56,219 nucleotides of DNA, from assembly GCA_002387735.1 (NCBI GenBank), contig DGKJ01000120.1, positions 1-56,219 of the forward strand, written 5' to 3'. This DNA comes from Bacteriovoracaceae bacterium UBA4573 (GTDB lineage: Bacteria; Bdellovibrionota; UBA1018; UBA923). How positions within the stretch are numbered: position 1 is the stretch's first letter; each line of letters opens with the position of its first letter. Under the pieces are notes generated by a model, which worked only from the letters and a program-made list of their open reading frames with translations, had not been told where the DNA came from and did no database searches. The position numbers and the translations under genes are program-made. Below, in pieces: positions 14,811 to 50,517 of this stretch.

Positions 14811-15926
14811 ATGAATAAGGTTTTTTGGTGCACAAGTTGTCTTAATATGTCGACGAGACCGCGGATTACATTTGACGAAAAAGGCAGGTGTAATGCGTGT
14901 CAGTGGTCGGAAAAAAAGAAAAGCTTCGATTGGTCGATGAGACAAGCCACCTTAGAAAAGCTTTTGGACAAGTATCGAAGAGATGATGGAGAGTTCGATG
15001 TTTTGGTGCCTGTAAGTGGTGGCAAAGACGGTTCATATGTCGCTCACAATTTAAAGACAAAATATGGAATGAACCCGCTTGCTTTAACCATTACTCCCCC
15101 GCTCTCTCTAGAAGTCGGAGATCAAAATCTTAAAAACTTCATACAGTCCGGCTATAATCACATTCAAATTAACCTTCATCCAGAGGTCACTCGATTAATC
15201 AGCCGTCACGGTTTCATAGAGTTTGGTTTTCCGTATTATGGTTGGGCAATTGGAGTTCAATCTGCTCCTGTAATGTTTGCGCATAAAATAGGAATTGGTC
15301 TAATTTTTTACGGAGAAGATGGTGAAGTAGAGTACGGCGGATCCACTCAGACCGCAGAAACACCGACTTATGACGTTAGTTATATGAAGAAAGTCTACCT
15401 TGAGGGAGGCCACGAAAAGGTTCTGGAGCTACTACCTAAAAGTCTTCAGAATCAGTTAACTTTTTGGCATTTTCCAACAGACGAAGATTTGCGGAGAAAT
15501 GAAGTAAAAATTGCGCATTGGTCATATTTTGAAAACTGGGACCCTTATCGCAACTACCTTGTGGCGAAAGAGTTTTGTGGACTTAAGGAAAGTGAAATGA
15601 CCAACACTGGGACTTTTACGAACTTTTCCCAAACCGACCAGGCGTTGTACTCGCTACACGCTTACCTCATGTATTTAAAATTCGGCTTTGGTCGGGCTAC
15701 GCAAGATGCGGGCATCGAAATTCGTAGAGGCGCAATGCGTCGTGATCAAGGAGTAAACCTTGTTCGAATTTACGACAACGCATTTCCGGAAGAACATATT
15801 GATGCGTATCTCGATTATTATAAAATGAGCAGGGAGGAATTTGATAGCGTCTTAGATCGTTGGGCAAATAAAGAACTCTTCGAAAAAAAGAATGGGCGTT
15901 GGATGCCGAACTTTCGGATCAGCTAG
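14811..15926 (+). CDS. N-acetyl sugar amidotransferase (WbuX/WbpG/PseA family)
   Basis: N-terminal CxxC...CxxC (CTSC, CNAC), PP-loop SGGKDG, YGEDGE.EYGG, YLKFGFGRA..DA..EIR.G. Confidence 0.9.
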   Translation: MNKVFWCTSCLNMSTRPRITFDEKGRCNACQWSEKKKSFDWSMRQATLEKLLDKYRRDDGEFDVLVPVSGGKDGSYVAHNLKTKYGMNPLALTITPPLSLEVGDQNLKNFIQSGYNHIQINLHPEVTRLISRHGFIEFGFPYYGWAIGVQSAPVMFAHKIGIGLIFYGEDGEVEYGGSTQTAETPTYDVSYMKKVYLEGGHEKVLELLPKSLQNQLTFWHFPTDEDLRRNEVKIAHWSYFENWDPYRNYLVAKEFCGLKESEMTNTGTFTNFSQTDQALYSLHAYLMYLKFGFGRATQDAGIEIRRGAMRRDQGVNLVRIYDNAFPEEHIDAYLDYYKMSREEFDSVLDRWANKELFEKKNGRWMPNFRIS

Positions 15927-15930
15927 GAAT

Positions 15931-16539
15931 ATGATTCATATTTTGGACTATGGAATGGGAAATATCGCTTCGCTGAAAAACGCGTTGGAGTTTCTTGGAG
16001 CTGACGTTCGCATAACGTCCAAATGGACCGAGTTGAAAAAGAGTGAAAAACTTATAATTCCAGGCGTGGGTTCATTTACCACTGCAATGGACCGCCTCGG
16101 TCAGCTCGATCTAATCGGAGCGATTAAAGAACTACCCGAAAGAAAAGCCCCTGTTCTCGGTATTTGTCTTGGCATGCAAATTTTGGCTGATCGAGGATAT
16201 GAAGGCGGAAATACACCTGGTTTAGGATTGGTACCGGGGGAGGTCGTACCCTTCGTTCCCGAGAGTTCGGAATTAATTCCGAATGTGGGATTTAACGAAG
16301 TTGAAATACTGCCTACCGCTGGGGATTTATTTAAAGAAATAGCGAGCGGTTCCTATTTTTATTTCACGCATAGTTATTTTTTTCGCACTGATTCTCAAGG
16401 GTCTGTTACTGGTTTGGCTCAAAACGGGACCAAATTTACAGCGAGTGTCCAGTGTGAATATGCATTCGGCGTTCAGTTTCATCCAGAAATTAGTCAAAAA
16501 AAAGGTTTGCAGCTTCTCAGGAATTTTATTGAGCTATGA
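15931..16539 (+). CDS. HisH-like glutamine amidotransferase subunit (WbuY-like)
   Basis: ILDYGMGN..S, PGVGSF, GICLGMQ, YF.HSY, GVQFHPE; sits between the amidotransferase and HisF-like genes. Confidence 0.9.
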   Translation: MIHILDYGMGNIASLKNALEFLGADVRITSKWTELKKSEKLIIPGVGSFTTAMDRLGQLDLIGAIKELPERKAPVLGICLGMQILADRGYEGGNTPGLGLVPGEVVPFVPESSELIPNVGFNEVEILPTAGDLFKEIASGSYFYFTHSYFFRTDSQGSVTGLAQNGTKFTASVQCEYAFGVQFHPEISQKKGLQLLRNFIEL

Positions 16540-17318
16540 GAAAAAAAAGACTGATTTTCGCCTTACTACACCAGGACGGATATTTTGTTTTAAGTCGAAA
16601 CTTTCGACTGCAAAAGGTAGGCGACGTAAACTGGTTGATTGATAACTACAATCTGGCAGAGGTTGTGAAATCGATCGATGAATTAGCTATTATTTCGGTT
16701 TCGAGAAACAGAATTATTCACGAGACCTATTTGAGAGATTGCGAAATTATCAGCAAAGTTTGTTTTACTCCCAAAATTTTTGGGGGAGGTATCGCTTCTG
16801 TAGAAGATGCAAAAAGATTATTTGATTCAGGCGCGGACAAAATTATTGTGAACTCTTTGTGTTTTTCAAACTCGGCTTTGGTGTCAGATCTAGTGAGGCT
16901 TTTCGGAAGCCAGGCGGTTGTTGGTTGCTTAGACGTTTTAAAAGACAAAGTAAGCGGCGAATACAAGGTTTTTGTTAAGAATGGATCGGAAGTGTCAACA
17001 CTCAATCTGCGAGAATGCGTCGCTAAGCTGGATGAATTGGGAGTTGGAGAAATTATGATTCAGTCAATATCCCAGGACGGAACCGGCTTTGGGCTTGATT
17101 TGGCGGTGGTTGACGCTGTGGTTGCCGAAAAAAACACAGGCTCTCGACCTATCGTACTCGCCGGTGGAGCAGGGTATCACGCCCACTTAGCAGAAGCGCT
17201 AGCCCATCCAAATGTAAACGCAGTACTAACTGCAAATATCTTAAATTTTATTGGCGACTCACTATCTACAACTCGCAGGGACCTAATTGACTCCGGGATT
17301 GGCCTAGCCAAGTTCTGA
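16536..17318 (+). CDS. HisF-like TIM-barrel subunit (WbuZ/AglZ-like)
   Basis: SRNFRLQKVG, DEL, FGGGI.S.EDA..LF.SGADKI..NS, GEI..QSI.QDGTG.G.D; ATGA overlap with the HisH-like gene. Confidence 0.85.
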   Translation: MRKKRLIFALLHQDGYFVLSRNFRLQKVGDVNWLIDNYNLAEVVKSIDELAIISVSRNRIIHETYLRDCEIISKVCFTPKIFGGGIASVEDAKRLFDSGADKIIVNSLCFSNSALVSDLVRLFGSQAVVGCLDVLKDKVSGEYKVFVKNGSEVSTLNLRECVAKLDELGVGEIMIQSISQDGTGFGLDLAVVDAVVAEKNTGSRPIVLAGGAGYHAHLAEALAHPNVNAVLTANILNFIGDSLSTTRRDLIDSGIGLAKF

Positions 17319-17400: not shown

Positions 17401-18969
17401 ATGAATTCGATAGAGATGAAGCGAAGTGAATCCAACGTCATGATGCAGTCTAAAAAATTAGCTGACGATTTCGCTTTTAGAGCAGCTCGCTATAATAACC
17501 GGGCCTCCACATTATTTCCTTTTTCACTTAGAGAAGAGAACGACCTTCAAGTGTCTTTTTTTGATTACTGGAGATTGAAGAACCGTCTAAACGGCGTGAT
17601 GTTGAATCTCCGAATTTACGATAATCATGGACAATTGTTGAAGCGGCACACGAAGCGAGTAGATGCGCAGCATAACAATATATCTGTTCGATCGATACTT
17701 GGGGCAGAGAGAGCGGCATCTATCGATGGAATGGTCGAAGTGGAGTTTCTAAGTTTTGAAAATATGCTCTACCCATATCCGGCTGTAGTTGCATTCTATT
17801 TCGGAAAAGATGGTGGCCGAGGTACGGGATTTAGTGCGGTACATTCTGCGGGTCGAGTGCTTAACCCCAATGAGGCCTTCGTTAAACGCAAGTCGATCGG
17901 TACGAATTGGAGTTGCCGCTTCAATGATTCTAATCATCAGCCTTTTTTTCATTTGTACACTGGCCCCGGAGGGCTCGATGAGCCATTGACTACCGAAGTT
18001 AGTATTTGGTCTCCGAAGAACGAAAAACTTTTGGAAAAAAAGTATGTTACAAAAATACAGTATCCATTTTCGTCTCAGATTTGTTTTTTGGATGAAATCT
18101 TTGGAGCCGACCTCCATGGTGTTCCTGAAAATTCATATGCGAGAGTAAAGTTTTATTCTACAAACACCTACCCTCTTATGATCGTCGGAAACTATCGAAA
18201 GAGTGATGGACTTTATGAGGTTTCTCATTCGTTTGTTCAAAACGAAGTAGAAGATTATCTTGAATCCCCGCCAAACGAAGGTTCAGAGATCGTGCCAACA
18301 TTTATTTCACTTCTCCAGCCAGAAGAGTTGGAGTTAGAGTTAATGGTTTTTCCTACGGACATTGAACACTCCACTCAAGCTCGAATTCGTGCGATGTCAG
18401 AGTGGAATGGGGTCCTTAAAAGCACTAACGAAGAAATTAGAATTGAAAGTGGCGCCAACTCCGGTAAGGCGTTTGTTCGAAAGTTAGAACCAAACCAAAG
18501 GATGGTTCTAATCGAGGCGTTGTCAGGCCCGAAGATTCCTGCCCGAATCAATACCAGCTTTCGTTACCGAGTGCGTGGGTCTAAATCGGGTTATTCGACG
18601 GATATTGCAAGTGGAGCCAAGGCATGGATCTATCCATCGAAAACAAATTACTGGGGCCATGGAATTATTTCGGAAGATGTTGAAACGGTACTTCTTGTTA
18701 GAAACGCTTCTCATAATAAATCCATTTCGGCACCCGTCAAAGGCACTCTTAGAATAAGTATGGATAATTCCGAGAGTGGACCCATAGATGTGACGATAAA
18801 TGCAGAAAGTGGACAGGCATTATATCTTTCAAAGCTTTGGCCAGAGATGGCCAAAGATAGTAAATTAAGAACGCTTTCGTGGTGGTTCGTAGCAGAAAAA
18901 TCTTTTTTAGATATTTGTTGGGTTTCATTTTCAAAAGACGGAAGAATTGCTGGAGAGCACTCATTTTGA
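17401..18969 (+). CDS. Hypothetical protein, 522 aa, about four predicted beta-rich repeat domains; paralog of 26738-27631 and 27628-28500
   Basis: Long ORF inside an operon. Shares segments with the two minus-strand hypotheticals (see findings). No signal peptide or TM segment evident. Confidence 0.8.
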   Translation: MNSIEMKRSESNVMMQSKKLADDFAFRAARYNNRASTLFPFSLREENDLQVSFFDYWRLKNRLNGVMLNLRIYDNHGQLLKRHTKRVDAQHNNISVRSILGAERAASIDGMVEVEFLSFENMLYPYPAVVAFYFGKDGGRGTGFSAVHSAGRVLNPNEAFVKRKSIGTNWSCRFNDSNHQPFFHLYTGPGGLDEPLTTEVSIWSPKNEKLLEKKYVTKIQYPFSSQICFLDEIFGADLHGVPENSYARVKFYSTNTYPLMIVGNYRKSDGLYEVSHSFVQNEVEDYLESPPNEGSEIVPTFISLLQPEELELELMVFPTDIEHSTQARIRAMSEWNGVLKSTNEEIRIESGANSGKAFVRKLEPNQRMVLIEALSGPKIPARINTSFRYRVRGSKSGYSTDIASGAKAWIYPSKTNYWGHGIISEDVETVLLVRNASHNKSISAPVKGTLRISMDNSESGPIDVTINAESGQALYLSKLWPEMAKDSKLRTLSWWFVAEKSFLDICWVSFSKDGRIAGEHSF

Positions 18970-18987: not shown

Positions 18988-21144
18988 ATGAAGGATAAAC
19001 TTAAAGTATACTTGGGGGATTTAACTCATGACACAGTGGTTTTGGTGTCAGATACAATTCCTATCAATATTGGATTTGTAGCAACTTATTTAAAAAAGTC
19101 TCTTGGTGACGACGTAGAAATCACTTTGTTTAAATATCCAAATGAAATGGTTCAGGCATTGCGCGAAAATCCGGCCGACGTTGTAGCGCTCAGCAACTAT
19201 TCATGGAACAGTCATTTGTCTGAAAGGATGTCGGCTTTTGCGCACGAACAAAATCCGGCATCGATAACAGTTCAGGGCGGTACCAATCTCCCACACAGAT
19301 CAGAATTGCAAAAAGAGTTTCTTCTGACGAGGCCGGCCACCGATTTTTTTATAGAGCTGGAAGGAGAAGTAGCCCTTACCAATTTAGTAAGTAAGATCTT
19401 AGATTTTAGAAAAACCTTCGACGGAATGGGGAATAGGCTATTTCGTGATGCCCTCTTTTCAAAGGCGATTGATGGGTGCCTTTTTATACAACCCGAAACT
19501 CGCTCATCGGAGCAGCCCGTCTTTATAAAGGGTGAAAAACCAGCGCGACTTACCTGCCTTGATGAAATTCCATCCCCGTATTTAACAGGTATTTTAGATA
19601 AATTTTTCGATGGTAAACTGACGCCTTTCATTGAAACCAACCGAGGTTGTCCATTTACCTGTTCTTTTTGTCATACCGGTAGTTCCTATTTTAATAAAAT
19701 AAATCATTTTTCGGCAGAGCGAGTTCGCGAAGAACTCGCATACATTGCGCCGAGAGTGTCAAAGCTTGGAATCAGAAACTTACATGTTGCGGATACAAAT
19801 TTCGGAATGTACGCGAGAGATAAAGAAATTTGTGAAATGCTGCTTGAGTCGCAGAAACGTTATCTGTGGCCCACTCACATAATGGCGACAACAGGAAAAA
19901 ATAAAAAAGAACAGGTAATTGATATCACCCAAATGATGGGCACTTCTTTTTCTGTGAATATGTCAGTCCAGTCTATGGATGCCGAAGTTTTAAGAAACAT
20001 TAATCGTTCTAATATTAAATTAGAACACTATACCGAGATCACTCGCGTATTAAATGAACGCGGACGCGCGACCAAGGGCGAAGTGATTATTGGTTTGCCA
20101 GGGGAAAGTAAACAAACTTTCGTCGATGGACTGCGCAAAATTCTGGAAGCCGGTGTTAGCCAGGTTTCAATGTATTCTTTAATGCTTTTGCACGGGACCT
20201 CTTTTCAGGAACCCGAATACAGGGCGAAATACAAAATCGTTGGTAAATATCGAATTGTACCTTTGAATTTTGGAGAATACGCTGGAAAAAAGGTGTTTGA
20301 TACTGAGGAAGTCGGAGTTGAAACGCGTGATATGCCATTTGACGACTACCTTTGGATTCGTGGTTTGTGTCTACTCGTCGAAACGTTGCATAACAGCAGG
20401 CCTTATCATGAGTTTTTTAAGTACGCGGATTCGATAGGAATAAGTACTTTTGATTTCATATTGATGGTTTACAACCGTTTGGCTGAGGCACCACCAGCCA
20501 TAAAAGAGTTGATGAAGGAATTTATTGCCGAAACCCGAACTGAACTTTGGGATTCAGAAGAAGAACTGATTTCTTTTTACAGAAATGAAGCTAACTACCA
20601 AAAATTACTCGCAGGCGAATTAGGTGGGAATTTAATATTCAAGTATAAATCGTTAAGCTTGGTTAAGTGTAAAGGCGATTGGATAAAATTTCTTTCTAGT
20701 CTTTGTCTAGAATGGGGCCTTGCATCGGCACCGAATAAAGCAGTGGTAGATAAAGAAGTTGCTGCAATCTCGCAGTTTGTGGATAAACGACTTGATGGAC
20801 TTCTTCAGCCCGAAGCAAATACCTCAAATATTGAGATGGTGACCCATTATGATCTACTGGCCTGGAGAGCAAGCTCGGGCAAATCACTTTCTACTTTTTA
20901 TCGCGACGAGCCCTTTTCTTTCGAGTTTAAGTATTCGGAGGAACAGCTTGAGGCAAGAACAGATCAATTTAAAAGATATGGCACGTCAGTTAGTGCACTA
21001 AGTAAAATAGTTACTCGAGTAAGTAATGTGGAAAGTTTATTTAGAAAAGTTGCTTATGGTGCCGGTACAGATCTTTCTAAGCCAGATAGCACAGACTCAA
21101 AAATAGAGCAGGACTTATTTGTGCGATATTCAACTTCTGGGTAA
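18988..21144 (+). CDS. B12-binding-domain radical SAM protein (class B methylase-like), 718 aa
   Basis: N-terminal cobalamin-binding pattern (P..IGF.A.YL, DVVALSNYSWN, GG), ETNRGCPFTCSFC (CxxxCxxC), DTNFG, SVQS, IIGLPGES. Confidence 0.9.
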   Translation: MKDKLKVYLGDLTHDTVVLVSDTIPINIGFVATYLKKSLGDDVEITLFKYPNEMVQALRENPADVVALSNYSWNSHLSERMSAFAHEQNPASITVQGGTNLPHRSELQKEFLLTRPATDFFIELEGEVALTNLVSKILDFRKTFDGMGNRLFRDALFSKAIDGCLFIQPETRSSEQPVFIKGEKPARLTCLDEIPSPYLTGILDKFFDGKLTPFIETNRGCPFTCSFCHTGSSYFNKINHFSAERVREELAYIAPRVSKLGIRNLHVADTNFGMYARDKEICEMLLESQKRYLWPTHIMATTGKNKKEQVIDITQMMGTSFSVNMSVQSMDAEVLRNINRSNIKLEHYTEITRVLNERGRATKGEVIIGLPGESKQTFVDGLRKILEAGVSQVSMYSLMLLHGTSFQEPEYRAKYKIVGKYRIVPLNFGEYAGKKVFDTEEVGVETRDMPFDDYLWIRGLCLLVETLHNSRPYHEFFKYADSIGISTFDFILMVYNRLAEAPPAIKELMKEFIAETRTELWDSEEELISFYRNEANYQKLLAGELGGNLIFKYKSLSLVKCKGDWIKFLSSLCLEWGLASAPNKAVVDKEVAAISQFVDKRLDGLLQPEANTSNIEMVTHYDLLAWRASSGKSLSTFYRDEPFSFEFKYSEEQLEARTDQFKRYGTSVSALSKIVTRVSNVESLFRKVAYGAGTDLSKPDSTDSKIEQDLFVRYSTSG

Positions 21145-21162
21145 TTGATTGGTGTTCGTTTA

Positions 21163-22209
21163 ATGGACATGGAATTGCAGAGCGTTATGCGACGCAGGCT
21201 TCTGCTGGAAACTTTCCAGCGAGTCTCGTGGAAAAAAATTTTATTCAGGGGCCCAGTTTATCTTTTGTTTTTCCCTTACGCTTATTTTCTTTTGCAAAAT
21301 AATACGCTTCGAGTTTTTAAAAAAAAGAAACTTTCCATTCCATGTAGAGTTTGTGGGTCTTCTAACTCTACCCACGCTGGTTTTCGCAGAGCAGAGCCCC
21401 CTTATGCCTTCGACGAGCGAAAAGACAGTATAAACCTTTATGAAAAAAAAGGTTTTTTTGGCGACATTATTAGAAAATTTGAACCGTTTTTTCTAAAACT
21501 TGAGTGGAGGCGATGCAACGATTGCGGGAGCCTGTTCCAAAATTATCCACATACTGAGTCGAATCTTGATCGCTACTATTCGAGCTTAATTTCCGCAATG
21601 GAAATGACCGCATCGGCGCGCCGAATCAAAGAGTTGCCGGCAGTTTATTTTGTTGAACGTACGCAGCTGAAAAATGGCAAAGTGTTAGATGTGGGCGCCG
21701 CCTCGGGAGTGACATGCAATTATTTCAAAACTCATGGCCTAGAATCTTGGGGAATTGAGCCTTCACATGAAAGAGTGGCAGCATCTCGGGAACTCTTCGG
21801 TTTGGGTGATCGAATGGTTCAGGGTGTTTATAATCGGACGTCTTTTGCCCCTAGTTCTTTTGACGGTATAGTCACACATCACGTTATCGAACATGTGTTA
21901 AAGCCTTCCGAATTTATTGATGCGCTTGCGCTTCATTTAAAAAAAGGCGGATGGCTATTGCTTCAGTGCCCCTCTCTTGATTGCAATGTTTCAGCGACTC
22001 ATGGAATGCACATTGCAGCGTTTACGCTCGATGTAATGCAAAAATTAATTGAAAAAAAAGGTTTTAGGGTGGTCGAGTCATTTGTTGTACCTAAAAAGGT
22101 TTCTGAAATTCCAGAATCCTGGCGTATTAGTAATTCCCCGGAATTAAGCGAATACACTCGTTTTGGATCAATGTTGGGCGGTATGAGCATTCTCGCGCGA
22201 AAGGTGTGA
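21163..22209 (+). CDS. Class I SAM-dependent methyltransferase with N-terminal zinc ribbon
   Basis: CRVC...CNDC, VLDVGAASG, GIEPS, FDGIVTHHVIEHV..P, LKKGG; hydrophobic N-terminal stretch. ATG 21163 preferred over TTG 21145. Confidence 0.85.
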   Translation: MDMELQSVMRRRLLLETFQRVSWKKILFRGPVYLLFFPYAYFLLQNNTLRVFKKKKLSIPCRVCGSSNSTHAGFRRAEPPYAFDERKDSINLYEKKGFFGDIIRKFEPFFLKLEWRRCNDCGSLFQNYPHTESNLDRYYSSLISAMEMTASARRIKELPAVYFVERTQLKNGKVLDVGAASGVTCNYFKTHGLESWGIEPSHERVAASRELFGLGDRMVQGVYNRTSFAPSSFDGIVTHHVIEHVLKPSEFIDALALHLKKGGWLLLQCPSLDCNVSATHGMHIAAFTLDVMQKLIEKKGFRVVESFVVPKKVSEIPESWRISNSPELSEYTRFGSMLGGMSILARKV

Positions 22210-22212
22210 AAC

Positions 22213-23109
22213 ATGTTAGAGAATAAGTTTCCCGGTAAGGACCTCACGGAAGAAGATTTAAAATCAAAAGTTCCTCTTTGTGCAAAAAAATCCAGGGACC
22301 ATAGAACCATCGTGAAAGCGGCTGGTGTAGAATTCGGTGGAAAGCTAATTCCGATTTTCGCCGGGCCTAATGCTGTCGAGAATGAAAGCATGATTATGCG
22401 AACAGCAGAAGCAGTAAAAATGGCTGGTGCGCATTTCTTGAGGGCGGGCGCCTTTAAACCTTTGAGTTTTCCCTATCGAAGTGAAAAATATTTCGAACTG
22501 CGCGAAGAGGGGTTGAAACTTTTACTTAAGGCGAAGGCAGCTTTTCAAATTCCGATTATCACAGAAATTATGCACGAAACAAAGGTGGATATAGTGGCTG
22601 AAGTTGCCGATATTCTTCAGGTTGGTGCACGAAACATGCAAAACTACCCACTGCTCGAAGCAGTAGCCAGGACCTCAAAACCGATTATGCTTAAGAGACA
22701 CTACGGTGCTTCGCTTCGCGATTGGTTGGGAGCTGCCGAGTATATATTGCATGCGGGTAATCCGAATGTAATTTTATGTGAACGTGGGGTAGTGGTTCCT
22801 CACACACATCGCGCGACTTCGAGATTTCTTTTAGACCTTCAGGTTATACCGGCAGCGCAGGAGGTAACCCACCTCCCAGTAGTGACAGACCCTTCACACG
22901 CTACGTTTTGGAAGCCATGGGTTAAGCCAATGGCATTGTCGTCTATTGCAGCAGGCGCAGATGGCGTAATGATAGAAGTTCACCCGGATCCAGAAAATGC
23001 AGCAGTAGACCCATTACAGCCGATAGATTTTAGGGACTTCAAAGGTCTTATGAAGGACATGGAGCGCGTAGCTAACGCAATTGATCGAACGGTCGGTGTG
23101 TCTGCGTGA
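22213..23109 (+). CDS. Class I-beta DAH7P/KDO8P synthase family protein with altered active site
   Basis: AGP.AVE, RAGAFKP, ITE, DILQVGARNMQNYPLL, P.MLKR, ILCERG, DPSH, GVMIEVHPDP. Cys->Asn (codon 53) and KPR->KPL (codon 84) relative to DAH7P synthases. Confidence 0.88.
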   Translation: MLENKFPGKDLTEEDLKSKVPLCAKKSRDHRTIVKAAGVEFGGKLIPIFAGPNAVENESMIMRTAEAVKMAGAHFLRAGAFKPLSFPYRSEKYFELREEGLKLLLKAKAAFQIPIITEIMHETKVDIVAEVADILQVGARNMQNYPLLEAVARTSKPIMLKRHYGASLRDWLGAAEYILHAGNPNVILCERGVVVPHTHRATSRFLLDLQVIPAAQEVTHLPVVTDPSHATFWKPWVKPMALSSIAAGADGVMIEVHPDPENAAVDPLQPIDFRDFKGLMKDMERVANAIDRTVGVSA

Positions 23110-24470
23110 ATAAAAAGCTAGTTTCGATAATTGTGCGTACGAAGAACGAGGAGCGCTGGATTTCTGCAGCCTTGCAAGCAGTGTTTTCTCAGACTTATCC
23201 GAATTTTGAAGTAATCCTAGTAGACAATTTAAGTAATGATCGAACGCTAGAGAAAGCTAAAAAATTCGATGTTAGGGTCGTTTCCATAGAAGATTTTCTG
23301 CCGGGTAAAGCAATTAATCTCGGAATACGACAGTCAAAAGGTGAGTATGTGGTGTGCTTGTCGGGTCATTGTATTCCAGTTGACGATAAGTGGCTTGAAA
23401 CTCTAGTAAACACTCTAGAAGAGGATGCGAATTTTGCGGGCGTTTATGGGCGTCAACAACCGCTATCCTATAGTTCAGACCTTGATAAAAGAGATTTGAT
23501 AATTACGTTTGGACTGGACCGTCGAATTCAACATAAAGATCCTTTCTTTCACAATGCCAACAGCATTCTTCGAAGAAGCATTTGGGACCAAATTCCATTT
23601 GATGAGGCGGCTACGAACATCGAAGATCGAATATGGGCAAGCGCTGTTTTGAAAAAGGGTCTTAAAATTGTTTATGACCCGGATGCGAGTGTTTACCACT
23701 ATCATGGAATCCATCACGGTAGAGATCTGGGACGAGCAAAAAAAATCGTCAAAATACTCGAGACCTTGGAGTCTAAGACGCTTCGAAACCCAGGTAAGTC
23801 CGAAGTAAGAAAAGTCGCAGCGGTGATTCCTGTGCGGGGTTCAGATCTTGAGGTTTTTGCAGGACGCCCGTTGCTCGAATATTCAATCAGAAGCTCATGT
23901 GCGAGCAAACTCGTTGATCAAACGGTGGTAGTGTCGGAAGACGCGAAAGCTCTCGAATTGGCACGTCAGCTTGGTGCGGATATATGTTTAGAACGACCGG
24001 CGGAACTTTCATTTGACTACAGGGATATAACGGACACGTTGGTATTTGCAGATGCGGCTTTAGCAGCGAAGGGCCTCGCGCCAGACGTGGTCGTCTATCT
24101 TTCGGTGAATAGCCCGTTTAGAAGAAAACAGCTGATAGACTCAATGCTTCAAAAAATGTTTGAAAATAATTACGACAGCATCCATGCAGCATTTCCAGAG
24201 AATCGAACATGCTGGATCGAACAAAATGGGGAACTCGTGCTCGTTGGCGAGGAGTTTGTTCCAGCAAAGTACAGGGACCCTCTTTATATCAGCCTTTCAG
24301 GGCTTGCCACATGCGTTCACTCAGATGTTCTAAGAAGTGGGACAAGACTGGGTAAAAATGTTGGGCTTTTTCAAGTTGATGACTCGATTTCGCTAATGGA
24401 TATAAAAAAAATACCAAACAAAGAAATTGCGGGAAATTTAATGAGCGCCTGGGACAAGGAGTTCGGCTAG
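23106..24470 (+). CDS. Fusion: N-terminal GT2 (rhamnosyltransferase-like) plus C-terminal degenerate acylneuraminate cytidylyltransferase-like domain
   Basis: SIIVRTKNE, VDNLS.D.T, GKAINLG, GRQ.P, EDRIWA, VYHYHG; then IPVRG..FAGRPLLEYSI, VVVSED, RPAELSFD. GTGA overlap with the upstream synthase. Confidence 0.85.
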   Translation: MNKKLVSIIVRTKNEERWISAALQAVFSQTYPNFEVILVDNLSNDRTLEKAKKFDVRVVSIEDFLPGKAINLGIRQSKGEYVVCLSGHCIPVDDKWLETLVNTLEEDANFAGVYGRQQPLSYSSDLDKRDLIITFGLDRRIQHKDPFFHNANSILRRSIWDQIPFDEAATNIEDRIWASAVLKKGLKIVYDPDASVYHYHGIHHGRDLGRAKKIVKILETLESKTLRNPGKSEVRKVAAVIPVRGSDLEVFAGRPLLEYSIRSSCASKLVDQTVVVSEDAKALELARQLGADICLERPAELSFDYRDITDTLVFADAALAAKGLAPDVVVYLSVNSPFRRKQLIDSMLQKMFENNYDSIHAAFPENRTCWIEQNGELVLVGEEFVPAKYRDPLYISLSGLATCVHSDVLRSGTRLGKNVGLFQVDDSISLMDIKKIPNKEIAGNLMSAWDKEFG

Positions 24471-25556: not shown

Positions 25557-26741
25557 GTGTCGAAAGAACAAATCATTCAATCAATAATTGACGGTATCAA
25601 AGAAGTTCTGCCAGGTTCAGGCAGTCCGAACGCGTCCTTCGAACTTCATGAGCCACGTTTTACCGGCAATGAGTTGAACTACTTGAAGCAATGCGTCGAG
25701 ACGGGTTGGGTATCTTCCCTCGGTGAATTTGTAACGAAGTTTGAAAAAGACTTGTCGAATTTTACAGGCGCTTCCCACGCGATTGCAACGTCCAATGGAA
25801 CTGCTGCACTACACACTTGTCTAATGCTCGTGGATGTAAAGCCGGGAGATGAAGTGTTGGTTCCAGCGCTTACCTTTGTAGCTACTGGAAATGTGGTAGC
25901 TTATTGTGCCGCTACACCAAACTTTTATGACTCTGAGCCCCACACCCTTGGAGTGAACGTTCAAAAATTGCGCGAGTACCTCGCCAGTAACTGTCGGGTA
26001 GTGGGTAGCGATTGTGTAAATAAGGCTACGGGCCGAAGAATTAGAGCCTTAATCGCAATGCATACATTTGGGCACCCGTGCGATTTGGCTCCACTCAAAG
26101 ATTTGTGCTTAGATTTTAAAATTCGACTTATCGAAGACGCCGCGGAATCGCTCGGATCATACTACAAAGGTGTACACACTGGCTTATTTGGTGAAGTGGC
26201 CGCTTTGAGCTTTAATGGCAATAAAATTGTAACTACTGGCGGAGGCGGCGCAATTCTCACGTCGGATCCCGAAATTGCTAGACGGGCCCGGCATCTTACT
26301 ACAACCGCCAAGGTGTCCCATCAGTGGGGCTTTTTTCATGATCAAGTGGGTTATAACTATCGCATGCCCAATATCAACGCAGCACTCGGCTGCGCTCAGA
26401 TGGAATCAATCGGGCAATTAATTGAAAATAAAAGACGCCTTGCCGCGCGTTACCAGAACGTATTTAATAACATTCCCGGTGTTCGGATTTTTAAAGAGGC
26501 GAACTACGCTCGTAGCAACTACTGGCTTAACGTGTTACTTTTGGAAAAAGCCGATGTAGGGGCTCGAGATCGGGTACTGGCCGCAGCGAACGCTGTTGGA
26601 ATTAAAGCCAGACCGGCCTGGACACTCCTTTACAAGTTACCGATGTTTCAGACCTGTCCACGCACCGACATGGCTGGATCGGAATTAATTGAAAATAGCC
26701 TTATCAATCTTCCCAGTAGTCCACACCTAGGAAAACATTAA
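25557..26741 (+). CDS. legC: PLP-dependent sugar aminotransferase, LegC-type
   Basis: LHEPRF.GNE..Y...C..TGWVSS.G, NGTAALH, PALTFVAT, IEDAAESLGS, SFNGNKIVTTGGGG, HDQVGYNYRMPNINAALG. Confidence 0.88.
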   Translation: MSKEQIIQSIIDGIKEVLPGSGSPNASFELHEPRFTGNELNYLKQCVETGWVSSLGEFVTKFEKDLSNFTGASHAIATSNGTAALHTCLMLVDVKPGDEVLVPALTFVATGNVVAYCAATPNFYDSEPHTLGVNVQKLREYLASNCRVVGSDCVNKATGRRIRALIAMHTFGHPCDLAPLKDLCLDFKIRLIEDAAESLGSYYKGVHTGLFGEVAALSFNGNKIVTTGGGGAILTSDPEIARRARHLTTTAKVSHQWGFFHDQVGYNYRMPNINAALGCAQMESIGQLIENKRRLAARYQNVFNNIPGVRIFKEANYARSNYWLNVLLLEKADVGARDRVLAAANAVGIKARPAWTLLYKLPMFQTCPRTDMAGSELIENSLINLPSSPHLGKH

Positions 26742-27631
26742 CAGTGCATTAAAGTAATAGCACCGTTTGAAAAGTGCATTAAAAGCATTACACGCGTCCA
26801 TTGGGTCGGAAGGCCGTGTAGATCGAACGAGCCGTTGGGACCCAATGCGGCTAACTGGGATTCTGAAGCCACATATCTAAAAACACCTCTCGGAGCTACT
26901 TCAGATGTGTGAGTGAATAATTCTTGGCCCGATTGATTTCTCAGGCGCAGACTAATTGCCTGCGACGAAGCACAGCGGTTTGTCGTAATTATTTCAACTC
27001 TTTGGCACCCAAGGTTTGAGCCAAATGGAATTTCGGGAAACCAAGAATAATTGCCCTTTTTTCCATAGAAAAGGTCGTACTTATCCGAGACTCCTTTTTG
27101 AAAAACCGCGTAGCGATCAATCCCGTGCACGAAAGCAGCAAAAGATTTTCCTTTGGTGAAACAATAATAACTACGATCAGCAAAATAAGCGTGTCCCTTG
27201 GTACATTCGGGCAAATCTAAAACCGCCTTAGGTACTGAAATGTGCCAAAGCAATGTTCCAACAGAAGAAGGAGATGAAAAAATGCTCTTTTCAGTGGCCA
27301 CAGAAATCTGCTTTGTTTCAAGGACACCCAATTCAAACTCCCTTTTTCCTATTTCTACGCCGTTACTATCAAACCACCATAGATTGACTTTAGTTCGGGT
27401 GTCGAGGTGCGGATAGTAAACTGAGTGGTGGTTGTAGATATAAAAAGTAGTATCAATCTCTCCGTCCGAGATCCATGGGTAGAGATCGTTGATTGCCCCA
27501 TATTTTCTCAGGCTAGGATTTTTTTCTTTTAGACTATGCGGAAGTCTATTCCTTATATGATTTTTGGCCCTTCGCAGGTGATGTAGTAGGGACTTTTTTA
27601 AGGATTCGTTTTGAGATGAGGTATTATTCAT
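26738..27631 (-). CDS. Hypothetical protein, 297 aa, two predicted beta-rich repeat domains
   Basis: Clean ORF with ATGA coupling to the upstream paralog; segments similar to the 522-aa protein. Confidence 0.8.
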   Translation of the reverse strand: MNNTSSQNESLKKSLLHHLRRAKNHIRNRLPHSLKEKNPSLRKYGAINDLYPWISDGEIDTTFYIYNHHSVYYPHLDTRTKVNLWWFDSNGVEIGKREFELGVLETKQISVATEKSIFSSPSSVGTLLWHISVPKAVLDLPECTKGHAYFADRSYYCFTKGKSFAAFVHGIDRYAVFQKGVSDKYDLFYGKKGNYSWFPEIPFGSNLGCQRVEIITTNRCASSQAISLRLRNQSGQELFTHTSEVAPRGVFRYVASESQLAALGPNGSFDLHGLPTQWTRVMLLMHFSNGAITLMHC

Positions 27632-28500
27632 TGCGTTAACCGGTTTTCTTTGTGAGATAGAAAATGATTTATCGCCCGCTCGCGAATTTCGTAAAAGTAT
27701 TTATTAGGCATTTGCAAATAAGCCTGTGGCGGGTGTGTGTGTTCGATCGAGACCCCTCCTCGCCTATTATTTACGTTTAAAAATAATGGGATTAGGATTC
27801 CCTCGTTCGAATAGCCAACCAAAGTAAATTGGCTCGGAGTTTCGCTGACTGAAGCGCTCGGAACAAGTTCTGAAAGCTTTAGTGCACACCCAGTAAAGCC
27901 GGGCACAGTTTTTCGGAGGCTTGAAACTTTTTTTCCATTAGCGTGGTGAAGGTCCACTGTGCAGGTAATCGGGTGAGAGGTCTCAGAATTTGTAGTGAAG
28001 TTTAAAAGAAGGAGATATGTTTCGATTTCCGTACTGAGCAAAACCTGACTGCTATGTACGATAAAATTAGCTCTTTTAGTGGCATTAAATGTGTAGGGTG
28101 CCTCGTAGACCACGCTACCAAAGGCTTTAAATCGATCGCGGTATTGCACTATCGACCGGAACATCAAAAACATTTCATGGTTAATATTGGTTAGGTCCAT
28201 TTCTGGAACTCTGTGTACTACGACAAGGTATGGCGACTTGAAGCCATATTTTTCAGTAAGTGAAGATACAGGAAAAAACTCTCTAGTATTGGGCGCCAAC
28301 TTGCCAACTTGGTACCTATCAACAAAATTTCCGGAAGGGTCGTAAACCGAAAACCAAACCTGGTGCGACTGCATAGAGTTCGAAATTCCCTTTGGGTTGA
28401 AAGAGCTCAAACCAACATATGCTTCTAAATCCAGGTCCGGAAAAACCATCATTGGCGTATATATCAATCGAAATGGATCTGCTTTCATGAGGGTGAACAT
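27628..28500 (-). CDS. Hypothetical protein, ~290 aa, two predicted beta-rich repeat domains
   Basis: Clean ORF (ATG 28500, or TTG 28506). The C-terminal half aligns by eye with the last domain of the 522-aa protein. Confidence 0.8.
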   Translation of the reverse strand: MFTLMKADPFRLIYTPMMVFPDLDLEAYVGLSSFNPKGISNSMQSHQVWFSVYDPSGNFVDRYQVGKLAPNTREFFPVSSLTEKYGFKSPYLVVVHRVPEMDLTNINHEMFLMFRSIVQYRDRFKAFGSVVYEAPYTFNATKRANFIVHSSQVLLSTEIETYLLLLNFTTNSETSHPITCTVDLHHANGKKVSSLRKTVPGFTGCALKLSELVPSASVSETPSQFTLVGYSNEGILIPLFLNVNNRRGGVSIEHTHPPQAYLQMPNKYFYEIRERAINHFLSHKENRLTQ

Positions 28501-28596
28501 ACTCAAGTATTCGCCAGTTTAACAAGAAAATTGCAGCCTATTTTTAAGGCGGGAATAGGCCGATTTTTGTTCAAAAGACAGTGGCCAGTAAGATGT

Positions 28597-29609: not shown

Positions 29610-30614
<1,005 letters not shown>

Positions 30615-31443: not shown

Positions 31444-32498
31444 ATGATAGCATTTCTAAAGAGATATTAATTCCTCCAACGGCTACAATAGAGGATGCTT
31501 TGCGTAGGTTAGTAGTCACCGTGCAGCAGGTTCTTTTTGTGGTCGATGAAGAAAGTCGAGTCACGGGTTGCATAACTGACGGCGATATCCGACGTGCATT
31601 GCTTCGTGGTGAGACAATTCATTCGAAAGTCGACAAGGTCGCTAGAACTACTTTCATTTTTGCGGGCCCAGAAACTCACCAAAAAAAAATATTTGAAATG
31701 ATGAAAAAAAACGGCGTGCGTCAAGTGCCAGTTCTAGATAAAGGTCGCCGATTATTAAAAGTTTACACAATAGACAGTTTTTTAAAGGAGAATTATGTTT
31801 TTAATTCTCCAGTAGTCATTATGGCAGGTGGTAGAGGCTCTCGATTAATGCCCTATACGGAAACCATTCCAAAGCCCATGCTTAACGTAGGCGGTCAGCC
31901 AGTGATCGAACGACTTATAATGTCGCTTCGAGAAAAAGGGGTAGACCATTTTTTTGTGTCCGTTAATTATTTGGCAGAAAAAATTATCGATTTTTTGGGC
32001 GATGGTTCGAAATATAACTGTAAATTCGAGTATATCTTAGAAGACACCCCCTTAGGGACTGCAGGTAGTTTAAGCATGCTTAAAGGGCGTATCGACGAGC
32101 CCTTTTTGGTAGTGAATGGAGACATACTTGTAAATATTGACCTAAATCTTTTGGCCGAGTTTCACCGAGTGCATAAATCGGTTGTGACGGCCTGTGCCAA
32201 ATATTTCACCTTGAAAGTGCCCTATGGGGTTTTCGAAATGAAAGGGCACGACGTTGCTGGAATTTCAGAAAAGCCAGAAATTCCATTTTTGGTTAATTCT
32301 GGAATTTATTTTTTTTCACCAAAAATTTTCAGTTATTTAGAAAATAAAAAAATGCCGTTGGACATGCCCGCGTTAATTTCAGATCTCATTTCTCGAGGGG
32401 AGTCAGTAAAGTGTTTTCAATCTCCGGAGCCTTGGATCGACATTGGTTCTATCGCAGATTTTGAAAACGCCCAAAAAAATTGGGATCGTATCTCTTAA
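31440..32498 (+). CDS. CBS-domain nucleotidyltransferase (PtmE/LegX-like)
   Basis: N-terminal CBS pair (ITDGDIRR), IMAGGRGSRL.P.T...PKPML, E..PLGTAGSL, NGDI, WIDIG; GTGA overlap with the SDR gene. Confidence 0.9.
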   Translation: MNDSISKEILIPPTATIEDALRRLVVTVQQVLFVVDEESRVTGCITDGDIRRALLRGETIHSKVDKVARTTFIFAGPETHQKKIFEMMKKNGVRQVPVLDKGRRLLKVYTIDSFLKENYVFNSPVVIMAGGRGSRLMPYTETIPKPMLNVGGQPVIERLIMSLREKGVDHFFVSVNYLAEKIIDFLGDGSKYNCKFEYILEDTPLGTAGSLSMLKGRIDEPFLVVNGDILVNIDLNLLAEFHRVHKSVVTACAKYFTLKVPYGVFEMKGHDVAGISEKPEIPFLVNSGIYFFSPKIFSYLENKKMPLDMPALISDLISRGESVKCFQSPEPWIDIGSIADFENAQKNWDRIS

Positions 32499-33592
32499 TG
32501 GAAGTTAAAGTGCATAGCCGTACATTGATCATCGCAGAGGCCGGCGTAAACCATAATGGTTCGATCGATGCAGCTTTCGAAATGGTCGATGTAGCTGCGA
32601 ACGCCGGTGTAGACTTTATTAAGTTTCAAACCTTTTCGGCTGAAAAAATTGTTACTAACACCGCAAAAAAGGCGCGCTATCAAATTGAAACAACTGATTC
32701 GTCCGAGACCCAGTTCCAAATGTTAAAGAAATTGGAACTCAGCGATGAAAATCACTTGAAGCTAATGGTTCACTGCAAAAAAATGGGAGTTCAATTTCTC
32801 TCGACCCCCTTTGACCTGGATAGCCTGAGTTTTTTGGTAAACACTTGCGGCGTATCTCAGTTAAAAATTTCGTCGGGAGATATTACGAATGGGCCGTTGC
32901 TTCTCGCGGCCGCTCAAAGCGGCCTGCCTGTTATTTTGTCCACCGGAATGAGTGATATGGACGAAATTGAGAGAGCTCTACAAGTATTAGCCTATGGCTA
33001 TTTACATAAAAATGAGCCGAAAAATTCTGCGGAAATCCAAGAAATTTTTCGTGGTCGAGACGTCAATCGAGTTTTGTCATCAAAAATTACTCTTTTACAA
33101 TGCACCAGCGAATATCCCGCGCCGTTCAATGAACTTAATCTAAAGGCTATGGCATCTATGCGAAATCGATTTCAAATTGATGTCGGTTTGTCGGATCACA
33201 GTGTTGGAGTTGCAGTTCCCCTGGCCGCAGTTGCGTTGGGAGCAAAGATTATTGAAAAACATTTTACTTTGTCGAAAGATCAGAAAGGCCCCGATCATCA
33301 GGCGTCTTTAGATCCGCTCGAACTTAAAACAATGGTTCGCTCTATTCGAGAAGTTGAAATGGCACTAGGTAGTGCTTTAAAAGAGCCTACTCCTTCTGAG
33401 ATAAAAAATAGGGTTTTTTTTAGAAAAAGTTTAGTCTCAGCGACGGACCTTACGAAGGGATCTGAGTGGAACTCACGTAATCTAATCGCAAAAAGGCCGG
33501 GAAGCGGTATTTCGCCGATGAAATACTGGGATTATTTGAATGTAAAAGCCGACAGAGACTATAGTGCTGATGAGGTAATTGATGGTGGTTAA
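32498..33592 (+). CDS. neuB: Nonulosonic acid synthase (NeuB/LegI family)
   Basis: IIAEAGVNHNG, KFQTF, STPFD, KISSG, ILSTGM, CTSEYP, GLSDHS, IEKHFT, PDHQASL, C-terminal SAF domain (RKSL, KRPGSGISP). Confidence 0.95.
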   Translation: MEVKVHSRTLIIAEAGVNHNGSIDAAFEMVDVAANAGVDFIKFQTFSAEKIVTNTAKKARYQIETTDSSETQFQMLKKLELSDENHLKLMVHCKKMGVQFLSTPFDLDSLSFLVNTCGVSQLKISSGDITNGPLLLAAAQSGLPVILSTGMSDMDEIERALQVLAYGYLHKNEPKNSAEIQEIFRGRDVNRVLSSKITLLQCTSEYPAPFNELNLKAMASMRNRFQIDVGLSDHSVGVAVPLAAVALGAKIIEKHFTLSKDQKGPDHQASLDPLELKTMVRSIREVEMALGSALKEPTPSEIKNRVFFRKSLVSATDLTKGSEWNSRNLIAKRPGSGISPMKYWDYLNVKADRDYSADEVIDGG

Positions 33593-36844: not shown

Positions 36845-38425
36845 CTAGATTATAAATTCTTTTAAAGAGGCAGGTTCATTTACCCCAAAAAATTGTTCTG
36901 AAAAAGCACGCGCTCGAAATCTTTGAGCATTTAATTGTTCGAGCGGAAGATTTTTAATCTCTTCTAAAATGGGAACTATGGAGCGACTTTTATCGTAGAT
37001 CCATCTAAGGTCGGTGAGTCGATATAAAGGATCAAAGCAGATGTCATTCTCGCGCGAAACGTATATTACGGGTAAACCAATAGCGATCGCTTCGATTGCA
37101 GATGCACTAGCCGAATAAATTGCGATATCGGCTCTTTCTAGGTCTTCTCGTAGGCTTTTGCATTCCGAGAGTGCGATATTTTTTGGTAATGCCTTGGTTG
37201 TTACATTTAGATGGCTAATAATGGCGGACCATTTGTGCGCGGGATGCTTTCGAACTATGACTTTCCAGTCGTTGTTGTTTTCTAAATTGGCGATAATGTT
37301 TTTGGCAAAATCGGAAGTTTCAATCAAGTCGAGCAAAATCAGGATTGTGTTTTTAATGGTCTCATTTTTCGATTCAGTTTTGTAACTGCTACTTTGTCGA
37401 AGCGCGAATCCGACGGAAAGTTTCAAGCGGTGTTCCTGGCTAAATTCTCGAATAACACGGACAGCTTCTTGTCCAGCCGTGACTACGCGGTCCGGAATTG
37501 GAGCGTATAGCGATTCATCTGTTCCTAAAAAAAGGTTCATCGAACCTGGCGATACAATCGTATGCTGGTACCCAATGATCTGAGTTTTTGGACTGAATGT
37601 TCGTAGCGCTAAAACACACATTCGTTCCCATGGATTATTTTCCCAAGTGTAAACAAAGTGTGAAAGTTTTAGAGTTTTACTTATATTCTTGATCGCATAA
37701 TAGTGGCAAAGGGAGTGAATAGAGGTAGAACTTAAGAGGTCGAAAAAATATTGATATCTAAAAACGGACGTGACGTCTTTCTCGGCGAAGCGTATAGGAC
37801 CTTTTGGTGATGTAAATAGTCCCAAAATTATTCGGCCCCAAACACGAATAAGGTCGTAGGGTTCGAGAAAAAAATGTAGCGGTAAAATCCGATCTGAAGC
37901 ACGACAATGTGCGAGGGCTTTATTAAAATCGCAAAGAGGGTCGACTATCGTTAGAACTTTATGATTACCTGGGGGATTTGAAGCAAGTTCAGCCAAATTT
38001 CCAAAGTAAGGATCTTTGGAGTCACCAGAATCTTTAGGGTTTTGCAGAAGAAAACTTTTGATCAGATAAAAGGGAGTCTCGCGATCAGAACACAGACTCT
38101 GAAAGAGTTCAGCCAAGGCTCGTCGCGAAATAAAAGCATTTTTAGCAATTCTAAGGCTGACTCGTATAGAATGGCTCACAGCTTTTGAAAAAATTTGCAG
38201 TTTGGTTAAAAATGCAAGTTCTGCCGGATTTGAATCGTGCCAGATCGAGTAGCAGTGTTTTACGGAGAGGGAGGATGTTTTATTTTTTGAAGGTATCCAG
38301 GTAGCCCACCACGCGAGCGAGCAATTCAAGCTATTAAGTCTAGCAATTAGACTGCAATATTCTTGTACAAAAGTCCCGTTGGTATGGTCCGAATCGCTCT
38401 TCAACGTGGATTTCGATGGTTCCAC
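36845..38425 (-). CDS. Uncharacterised surface-carbohydrate protein with GT-B-like C-terminus
   Basis: WENNPWE, IIGYQH, VRKHP, and ADIAIYSAS.SAIEAIAIGLPVI typical of GT-B C-terminal lobes. GTG 38425 preferred (track start 38452). Confidence 0.6.
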   Translation of the reverse strand: MEPSKSTLKSDSDHTNGTFVQEYCSLIARLNSLNCSLAWWATWIPSKNKTSSLSVKHCYSIWHDSNPAELAFLTKLQIFSKAVSHSIRVSLRIAKNAFISRRALAELFQSLCSDRETPFYLIKSFLLQNPKDSGDSKDPYFGNLAELASNPPGNHKVLTIVDPLCDFNKALAHCRASDRILPLHFFLEPYDLIRVWGRIILGLFTSPKGPIRFAEKDVTSVFRYQYFFDLLSSTSIHSLCHYYAIKNISKTLKLSHFVYTWENNPWERMCVLALRTFSPKTQIIGYQHTIVSPGSMNLFLGTDESLYAPIPDRVVTAGQEAVRVIREFSQEHRLKLSVGFALRQSSSYKTESKNETIKNTILILLDLIETSDFAKNIIANLENNNDWKVIVRKHPAHKWSAIISHLNVTTKALPKNIALSECKSLREDLERADIAIYSASASAIEAIAIGLPVIYVSRENDICFDPLYRLTDLRWIYDKSRSIVPILEEIKNLPLEQLNAQRFRARAFSEQFFGVNEPASLKEFII

Positions 38426-39111
38426 TCGGTCAGCACCTTTTCCGCAAGCCAAAAGTCAAATTCATCGTGGATATCTATCGTAGTTCTAAAATCCTCTGTA
38501 GGAATAATTTCCACTACGCTCCCCAATCGTTTGCCTTCTCGAACAAGCCAAGCACGTGTAGCTGAAGCAACGCCTTGGTCCTCGCGGTAGGTAACTTTAT
38601 CTCCTCGTTCTTGTCGTGAGCTATAAACCGCTTCTGTAAGACGAACGTATCCCTCATTGGTTTTTTTCCAAAAGTGTTTGTGAGTTTTGTACCCTGAAAA
38701 GGCTGTGTGAACGGCAGGATTCTTTTTTAAATGATTCACGCATGCCGCAATCATTTCGGGGGTTCGAAATACATCAGTGGGTTGAAGGTAAACTACGATA
38801 TCGAATTTGGCTCCGATCATGTCTTCATAGGTTGTTAACGCGTGCGTGATAACAGGGTCTGGGGTAGCCGAATCAGTCGCGAGTTCTGGAGGTCGTCGAA
38901 AAGGTACTACCGCGCCCGCCTTCATGGATATTTCAGCAATTTCATCATCGTCTGTGGTTACAAGCACTTCGTCGCATACGCCAGATTCCTTAGCGTGATC
39001 AATGCTATGCACAATGAGTGGTTTTCCAGCTAATTTCCTGACATTTTTTCGCGGCAGTCCCTTAGAGCCACCGCGAGCCAGGATTATGGCGATTGTTTTT
39101 AAGTTATCCAT
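38401..39111 (-). CDS. Second acylneuraminate/ulosonate cytidylyltransferase
   Basis: ILARGGSKGLPRKN, VTTDDDEI, RPPELATD, LQPT..FR, DI....DF..AE. Confidence 0.9.
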   Translation of the reverse strand: MDNLKTIAIILARGGSKGLPRKNVRKLAGKPLIVHSIDHAKESGVCDEVLVTTDDDEIAEISMKAGAVVPFRRPPELATDSATPDPVITHALTTYEDMIGAKFDIVVYLQPTDVFRTPEMIAACVNHLKKNPAVHTAFSGYKTHKHFWKKTNEGYVRLTEAVYSSRQERGDKVTYREDQGVASATRAWLVREGKRLGSVVEIIPTEDFRTTIDIHDEFDFWLAEKVLTEWNHRNPR

Positions 39112-50383: not shown

Positions 50384-50517
50384 AGGTAAGAGACTCTTAT
50401 GAGTATAAGATCGAGACATGGGTGTCAAATTCGAAGAGTGGCGCCGTGGGTGCGTAGGTCCAGATCAGACCGATGCGATTGACACTCATAATGTGTTCTT
50501 ATATTGATCAAAATACT

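Follow-up and report, generated by a model that had tools for sequence, protein, structure and literature searches.

What does an enzyme make that belongs by sequence to the DAH7P synthases (DAH7PS), lacks both their metal-binding Cys and the Arg that holds the phosphate of E4P, and is encoded within a glycan island? This question is raised by a gene in the window, which is the whole stretch of 56,219 nucleotides analysed here.

Residues and family of the synthase

The gene and the two codons concerned are the following.

22213-23109, + strand: KPL-type DAH7PS-like PEP aldolase, proposed ulosonate synthase, 298 aa (protein P0001)
22369-22371, + strand: codon AAT, Asn53 in AGPNAVE, aligned on the metal-binding Cys (Cys31 of Pyrococcus furiosus DAH7PS)
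22462-22464, + strand: codon TTG, Leu84 in FKPLSFPY, aligned on the E4P-phosphate Arg of KPR(T/S) (Arg62 of P. furiosus)

Translation of the open reading frame and alignment to the DAH7PS structures 1VS1 and 1ZCO find AGPNAVE and FKPLSFPY at these codons, as the preliminary description had claimed, and its further statements on the protein hold as well. Indeed, the other three metal ligands are present in the same alignment (His229 in DPSH, Glu255 in IEVH and Asp266 in AAVDP), there is no regulatory domain, with about 45 residues before the barrel, and neither the KPR nor the KANR motif occurs, the KPR(T/S) position being occupied by KPLS and KANRS being absent.

The Pfam model DAHP_synth_1 (PF00793) matches P0001 with 185.5 bits (E = 1.2e-54). 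The score with NCBIfam TIGR01361 (DAHP_synth_Bsub) is 285, above the cut-off of 267.75, and that with PRK08673 is 330, just below the cut-off of 335. In the PDB, the top hits are entries of DAH7PS (1VS1, 1ZCO and 1RZM, ~1e-57 to 1e-63) while KDO8PS entries are found at ~1e-20, and the KDO8PS model TIGR01362 gives 105.5, far under its cut-off of 314. The NeuB model PF03102 reaches 23.6 bits over residues 92-188 only, not over the full length. The AlphaFold2 model of P0001 has a pLDDT of 81.7, with values below 50 in the clade-specific loops, and a target-normalised TM-score of 0.88 to 1VS1 (Foldseek). By sequence and predicted fold, the assignment to type I-beta DAH7PS is solid; that a DAH7PS sequence model still accepts P0001 counts against the new function proposed below.

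In DAH7PS, PEP is bound by an Arg, a Lys, a Gly-x-Arg, a Lys and an Arg, and E4P by an Arg, a Thr and an Asp, of which KPR(T/S) supplies the Arg and the Thr (PMC6362186). According to the alignment, all PEP ligands are retained in P0001 (Arg77, Lys82, Gly138-Ala139-Arg140, Lys161 and Arg191), and among the E4P ligands named in that paper the single loss is the Arg; the Ser/Thr following Leu84 is retained. P0001 lacks three features that define this enzyme, namely its Cys ligand, its KPR motif and its shikimate context, and EC 2.5.1.54 should not be assigned to it.

The two substitutions are not sequencing errors, because the same gene is found in six independent assemblies. The exact protein occurs on 18 contigs, and the six that were fetched, which come from independent samples (two SRA runs, three JGI metagenomes and one NCBI MAG), are all identical to the window over the entire 897 nt of the synthase gene. 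Moreover, GPN..E and KPL[TS]FP are both present in each of the 121 closest homologues (56-100% identity), whose sources include SAR11 (Pelagibacteraceae), SAR86, SAR324, Prochlorococcus, Rhodospirillales, Thalassobaculales, Methylomirabilota and others; error is ruled out on both grounds. In the canonical type I-beta set, Cys occupies the first site in 47 of 47 sequences and Arg the second in 45 of 47, whereas none of 90 KPL-clade sequences has Arg at the KPR position. Across 86 N-type sequences (the group defined below that includes the window gene), little or no variation is seen at N53, L84, F86, R89, H197, H199, F232 and W233. The PEP ligands and the three remaining metal ligands are invariant in the clade, whose members are 60-79% identical across phyla and share an N-terminal segment of 20 residues, NKxPGKDxxxxD, which is added relative to characterised DAH7PS.

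The KPL/HTH clade and its aldose site

One genome per species was scanned and the proteins were extracted, and a maximum-likelihood tree was computed from 81 sequences with the host genome's own KdsA as root. In this tree all KPL sequences form a single clade (SH-aLRT 100), which branches from within type I-beta DAH7PS. The N-type group (29 rows, support 99) holds the window gene together with members from SAR11, SAR86, SAR324, a Prochlorococcus SAG, Azospirillum, Nisaea, Thalassobaculum, Magnetovibrio and Thiotrichaceae, and is characterised by the motifs GPN[MTAL][VA]E, FKPL[TS]FPYR, ERGxxxxHTHRxxSR and DPSHATFWxPWV. Its sister, the C-type group (four rows, support 96; Planctomycetia, Vicinamibacterales, Acidobacteriota and Nitrospiraceae), has the same gene cassette as the N-type and shares FKPL[TS]FPYR and PHTH with it, yet keeps GPC[AT]VE, and it reads DPSHSTF[RK]R. 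All outgroups in the tree carry Cys.

FKPL[TS]FPYR, the PHTH insertion and the DPSH[AS]TF loop are found in P0001 and in every clade member examined. In P. furiosus numbering, the changes common to the N-type and C-type groups are R62L, S64F, G70E, T142S, R169H, F171H, G204F and G/S239P, and both groups also have an insertion that bears an invariant Arg (Arg89). On the AlphaFold2 model, in which the loops concerned are of low confidence (pLDDT < 50), the clade changes map to the loops after beta2, beta6, beta7 and beta8, which would form the catalytic face of the barrel. Arg89 is invariant and Arg169, His197 and His199 are conserved in both sub-clades, and all four are sited in these predicted active-site loops.

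Since the C-type sister group has KPL and yet keeps the Cys, and since the outgroups all carry Cys, the most parsimonious order from the sequences is that the Arg-to-Leu change and the loop remodelling came first and the Cys-to-Asn change later, and once. It follows from this inferred order that the two substitutions would be separate events, the Arg-to-Leu change defining the family and going with a new substrate, and the Cys-to-Asn change being a separate later switch.

Compared with the unregulated type I-beta DAH7PS of Aeropyrum pernix (1VS1) and P. furiosus (1ZCO) and with that of T. maritima (1RZM), P0001 has the same (beta/alpha)8 fold at 41-44% identity and the TM-score given above, the same PEP ligands and His/Glu/Asp set, and likewise no large regulatory domain. 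The clade of the window gene differs from these enzymes by the exchange of Cys for Asn and of KPR(T/S)SPY for KPL(T/S)FPYR, by insertions of three residues each behind beta2 and beta6, of which the second produces PHTH, by DPSHATFWxPW in place of DPSHxxGxR, and by the additional N-terminal NKxPGKD segment. Furthermore, the gene lies in a glycan cassette and not in an aro context, in a host without shikimate pathway.

More DAH7PS-like variants were seen among the 50%-identity cluster representatives (P0126, P0127, P0136 and P0137), with KPC/KPL-TFP motifs, the HTH insertion and other loop-7 sequences; the radiation is broader than the N-type and C-type sub-clades, with few additional members. 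Two N-type contigs carry the labels 'uncultured archaeon' (L018) and 'Bifidobacterium' (L023). L023 is nearly identical to the Ilumatobacteraceae contig L024, and L018 and L023 are probably mis-binned MAG contigs.

The glycan cassette, the island and the host genome

Four partners recur beside the homologues elsewhere: a cytidylyltransferase, a GT2 fusion protein, a WlbA-like Gfo oxidoreductase and an AroE-like dehydrogenase. Three or more of them occur within 8 kb of the synthase in 25 of 33 KPL loci, compared to 0 of 49 canonical type I-beta loci, where AroE is the sole partner seen, in 7 of 49. The window has all four, in two blocks at 22-25 kb and 38-42 kb, and a further oxidoreductase which is not a cassette orthologue.

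23106-24470, + strand: GT2 glycosyltransferase fused to a cytidylyltransferase-like domain, putative transferase and cassette member; its start overlaps the synthase stop (GTGA)
38401-39111, - strand: intact CTP_transf_3 cytidylyltransferase with the loop ARGGSKGLPRKN, proposed CMP-ulosonate synthetase; cassette orthologue, 44-64% identity in other loci
40217-42400, + strand: fusion of a WlbA-like Gfo/Idh/MocA oxidoreductase (residues 1-345) and an AroE-like dehydrogenase (residues ~385-727), 727 aa
24479-25435, - strand: second, more divergent Gfo/Idh/MocA oxidoreductase, not a cassette orthologue

The stand-alone cytidylyltransferase has its best match in PseF (117 bits), KdsB being next, and is thus of the type by which 2-keto-3-deoxy sugar acids are activated. 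In the C-terminal cytidylyltransferase-like domain of the GT2 fusion, the corresponding stretch reads IPVRGSDLEVFAGRP while the two intact enzymes of the window have ARGGSKG(L/V)P(R/G)KN; its CTP loop looks degenerate at the sequence level, and the domain may bind the CMP-sugar for the GT2 domain. To our knowledge, CMP-sugar donors are not known for GT2 enzymes, which counts against the pathway proposed below.

For the Gfo half of the fusion at 40217-42400 the nearest match is WlbA (3q2k, 4e-71), which acts as 3-dehydrogenase on a uronic-acid sugar. The half related to shikimate dehydrogenase (SDH) keeps, in 26 copies of the cassette, its catalytic Lys/Asp pair, its NADP loop and the substrate-holding Asn and Gln, and has A-R-S at the position of SxS. 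A precedent for an SDH-family enzyme with a keto-sugar substrate is found among the PDB matches, namely the 5-ketofructose reductase 7cok. The same in-frame fusion is present in a Vicinamibacterales locus (L035), most other cassettes having two adjacent genes, and such a fusion fits two consecutive steps.

When the neighbouring ORFs of the 33 loci were clustered, no phosphatase, kinase, sugar isomerase or aminotransferase was conserved near the synthase, nor was any further neighbour beyond the four partners. In three SAR11 loci (L012, L015 and L019) the cassette cytidylyltransferase is fused to a methyltransferase. Large TPR proteins with a glycosyltransferase-like C-terminus are encoded near the cassette in six loci of SAR11 and Rhodospirillales (L001, L022, L025, L026, L028 and L030); these may be protein glycosyltransferases that use the cassette product.

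The window as a whole is a glycan island of about 45 kb following ruvCAB and lpxC, with a GC content of 41-44% against 50% at the ruv end. Besides the cassette it contains two methyltransferase genes upstream of the synthase and its own nonulosonate pathway of six genes.

18988-21144, + strand: B12-binding radical SAM methyltransferase, KedN5-like (200 bits), upstream of the synthase
21145-22209, + strand: class I methyltransferase, immediately before the synthase gene, 3 nt separating the two
at 25557: LegC-family aminotransferase (511 bits)
at 29619: PseB-type inverting dehydratase (501 bits)
32480-33592: NeuB, NeuB_NnaB-type synthase (472 bits)
at 33579: acetyltransferase
at 34223: cytidylyltransferase adjoining NeuB
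at 44365: NeuC-like epimerase

The two methyltransferases are window-specific accessories outside the conserved cassette; methylation may be a tailoring step that they carry out on the sugar, and it may be a recurring theme. The nonulosonate pathway mixes signatures, being PseB-type, LegC-family and NeuB_NnaB-type in its different genes. At 14811-17318, HisH-like and HisF-like genes come after one for a WbuX-family N-acetyl-sugar amidotransferase (333 bits), and these three together are the usual trio for acetamidino sugars. Seven sizeable ORFs of the island have no Pfam match (17401-18969, 26738-27631, 27628-28506, 36845-38452, 42436-43449, 47137-48972 and 50473-51828). The one at 36845-38452 matches weakly TIGR04326, a surface carbohydrate biosynthesis protein, and PseG, and it could be a transferase for a CMP-sugar.

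The host genome (G000; 2.8 Mb, 94% complete) contains two PF00793 genes, the synthase gene and a Cys-type KdsA (CGPCVIE, KANRS and DATHSVQ) which adjoins pyrG on another contig. No type II DAH7PS, chorismate synthase or DHQ synthase is present in this 94% complete genome, and its sole shikimate-DH domain is that of the cassette fusion at 40217-42400. Among 30 relatives of the host, 18 have no DAH7PS-like match, and the lineage is probably auxotrophic for aromatic compounds. All eight other carrier genomes have a separate ordinary DAH7PS and a KdsA besides the clade gene. A role as the housekeeping DAH7PS of the organism is ruled out, the host being without aroB and aroC and the eight other carriers having a separate DAH7PS. 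Likewise, a KdsA paralogue is ruled out by the scores and motifs, the true KdsA being on the other contig. No homologue above 55% identity was found in any of the 30 relatives; therefore the synthase gene arrived with the island. The distribution of the clade is horizontal.

Proposed function and its alternatives

The fold, the residue states, the clade structure, the cassette linkage, the absence of the shikimate pathway from the host and the horizontal distribution are established observations. Beyond these, we consider it probable that P0001, a member of an uncharacterised branch of type I-beta DAH7PS, uses PEP to synthesise a 3-deoxy-ulosonic acid, as yet unidentified, that becomes CMP-activated; the activity, metal independence, order of steps, aldose and product are inferred. 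The preliminary description had inferred, from the sequence of the window alone, a metal-independent synthase with a non-phosphorylated or differently substituted aldose as substrate, hence a new ulosonate synthase. All computational tests, namely clade constraint, PEP site, cassette and a host without shikimate pathway, agree with a new ulosonate synthase by which E4P is not used in the canonical manner and which is probably metal-independent.

In the proposed pathway, a 3-deoxy-2-ulosonic acid would be formed when the synthase condenses PEP and an aldose that is not E4P. The WlbA-like Gfo and the AroE-like dehydrogenase would then probably oxidise one ring hydroxyl and re-reduce it, resulting in epimerisation at that position. 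This role is suggested because the pyranose of a 3-deoxy-ulosonate resembles quinate, of which it is an oxa-analogue: a carboxylate and a hydroxyl are on one carbon, followed by CH2 and then CHOH. The pair may act on the ulosonate or, equally, on the precursor aldose before condensation. The stand-alone cytidylyltransferase would next make the CMP-sugar, and the GT2 fusion protein would transfer it to a surface glycan.

As for the metal, in KDO8PS the Cys-to-Asn change is required for the switch from a metal-dependent to a metal-independent enzyme, the Asn side chain replacing Cys and metal (PMC3052366). By analogy, the N-type enzyme, with Asn in place of the metal Cys, is probably metal-independent; His, Glu and Asp are retained, so that metal binding is not formally excluded. 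P0001 shares with the metal-independent KdsA (E. coli 1D9E, N. meningitidis) the superfamily, the Asn for Cys with retained His/Glu/Asp, a parallel evolutionary switch, and, by inference, the product class, a 3-deoxy-ulosonic acid for a CMP-activated glycan sugar. It differs from KdsA by an identity of only ~25%, the lack of KANRS, the TIGR01362 score below cut-off, a host that has its own Cys-type KdsA, and a cassette without KdsC/KdsD-type partners in which two oxidoreductases are found instead. The proposed pathway is also similar to that of NeuB/PseI/LegI with NeuA/PseF/LegF, in which PEP is joined to an unphosphorylated aldose and the product is CMP-activated and transferred, and the partner cytidylyltransferase is PseF-like. 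However, P0001 belongs to another enzyme family than NeuB, and a true NeuB with its own adjacent cytidylyltransferase is encoded separately in the window. Thus, by descent P0001 is a type I-beta DAH7PS, and we propose, its activity being inferred, that it functions in the manner of KdsA and NeuB, making an ulosonate from PEP for the supply of a CMP-sugar.

The nature of the aldose is where the alternatives diverge. Because the Arg is lost, Leu, Phe, Phe and Trp are gained and no phosphatase accompanies the gene, the sequence evidence argues for a neutral or deoxy aldose tail, without substrate data. A phosphorylated or carboxylated aldose is not excluded, as Arg89, Arg169, His197 and His199 could form a relocated anion site. 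An aldose that is still anionic (A5P, R5P, a hexose 6-phosphate or a uronate) and whose charge is held by these four residues is an unlikely but real possibility: both sub-clades keep them, their positions are in the active-site loops, Leu84 is still followed by Ser/Thr, and the Gfo partner resembles WlbA, which is active on a uronic-acid sugar. The altered positions have nevertheless turned hydrophobic, and the 33 loci show no conserved phosphatase within or beside the cassette.

It is improbable, in our view, that P0001 is a genuine DAH7P synthase condensing PEP with E4P, the product of which would be diverted to a DAH-type glycan sugar or a specialised metabolite. Although its closest characterised relatives are DAH7PS, TIGR01361 scores above cut-off and an AroE-like gene is in the neighbourhood, the E4P-phosphate Arg is lost and the adjoining loop remodelled in all members, the host has neither DHQ synthase nor chorismate synthase, and the cassette comes with a cytidylyltransferase and a glycosyltransferase that are found in 0 of 49 canonical loci. 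We give next to no credence to a catalytically dead pseudo-enzyme or scaffold that the glycan locus would have kept for a binding or regulatory role. It is true that a metal ligand and a substrate ligand have each been lost, but all PEP ligands and the three other metal ligands are invariant, members remain 60-79% identical across phyla, and metal-free KDO8PS demonstrates that an Asn form can be active; this candidate was rejected on the conservation of the PEP ligands. Lack of conservation, which formed part of the pseudo-enzyme outcome that the preliminary description had listed as refuting it, is not observed either, both residues being invariant in the 121 homologues and the PEP ligands being kept.

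Returning to the ulosonate synthase that we favour, a broader proposal can be made, for which we regard the chances as evenly balanced: in addition to KdsA and NeuB, the KPL/HTH clade would represent a third class of synthase for glycan ulosonic acids. This class would be derived from DAH7PS and would provide a chemically undescribed CMP-activated keto-acid sugar to the surfaces of SAR11, SAR86 and Prochlorococcus, which are among the most abundant bacteria of the ocean, and its Cys-to-Asn change would have arisen independently of that in KDO8PS. No description of the clade or of its cassette was found in the searchable literature (full-text), and we know of no glycan with a matching sugar from any carrier.

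Annotation pipelines name such genes '3-deoxy-7-phosphoheptulonate synthase' and 'shikimate dehydrogenase', and metabolic reconstructions of uncultured and marine bacteria would credit them with shikimate steps; the host has only these two such genes and no pathway for them. Some carriers are available in culture, namely Nisaea denitrificans DSM 18348, Thalassobaculum fulvum KCTC 42651, Azospirillum sp. ST 5-10 and Pelagibacter HTCC9565, so the question is directly testable. If the proposal is true, the clade would offer a second natural and independent switch from Cys plus metal to Asn, with Cys-type sisters for comparison, useful for the long-running question of the metal's role in the superfamily. 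It would also imply that there is an acidic surface sugar not yet described and that sugars of this class have a third enzymatic route, which occurs in the variable glycan islands that influence how phages and grazers recognise SAR11, SAR86 and Prochlorococcus.
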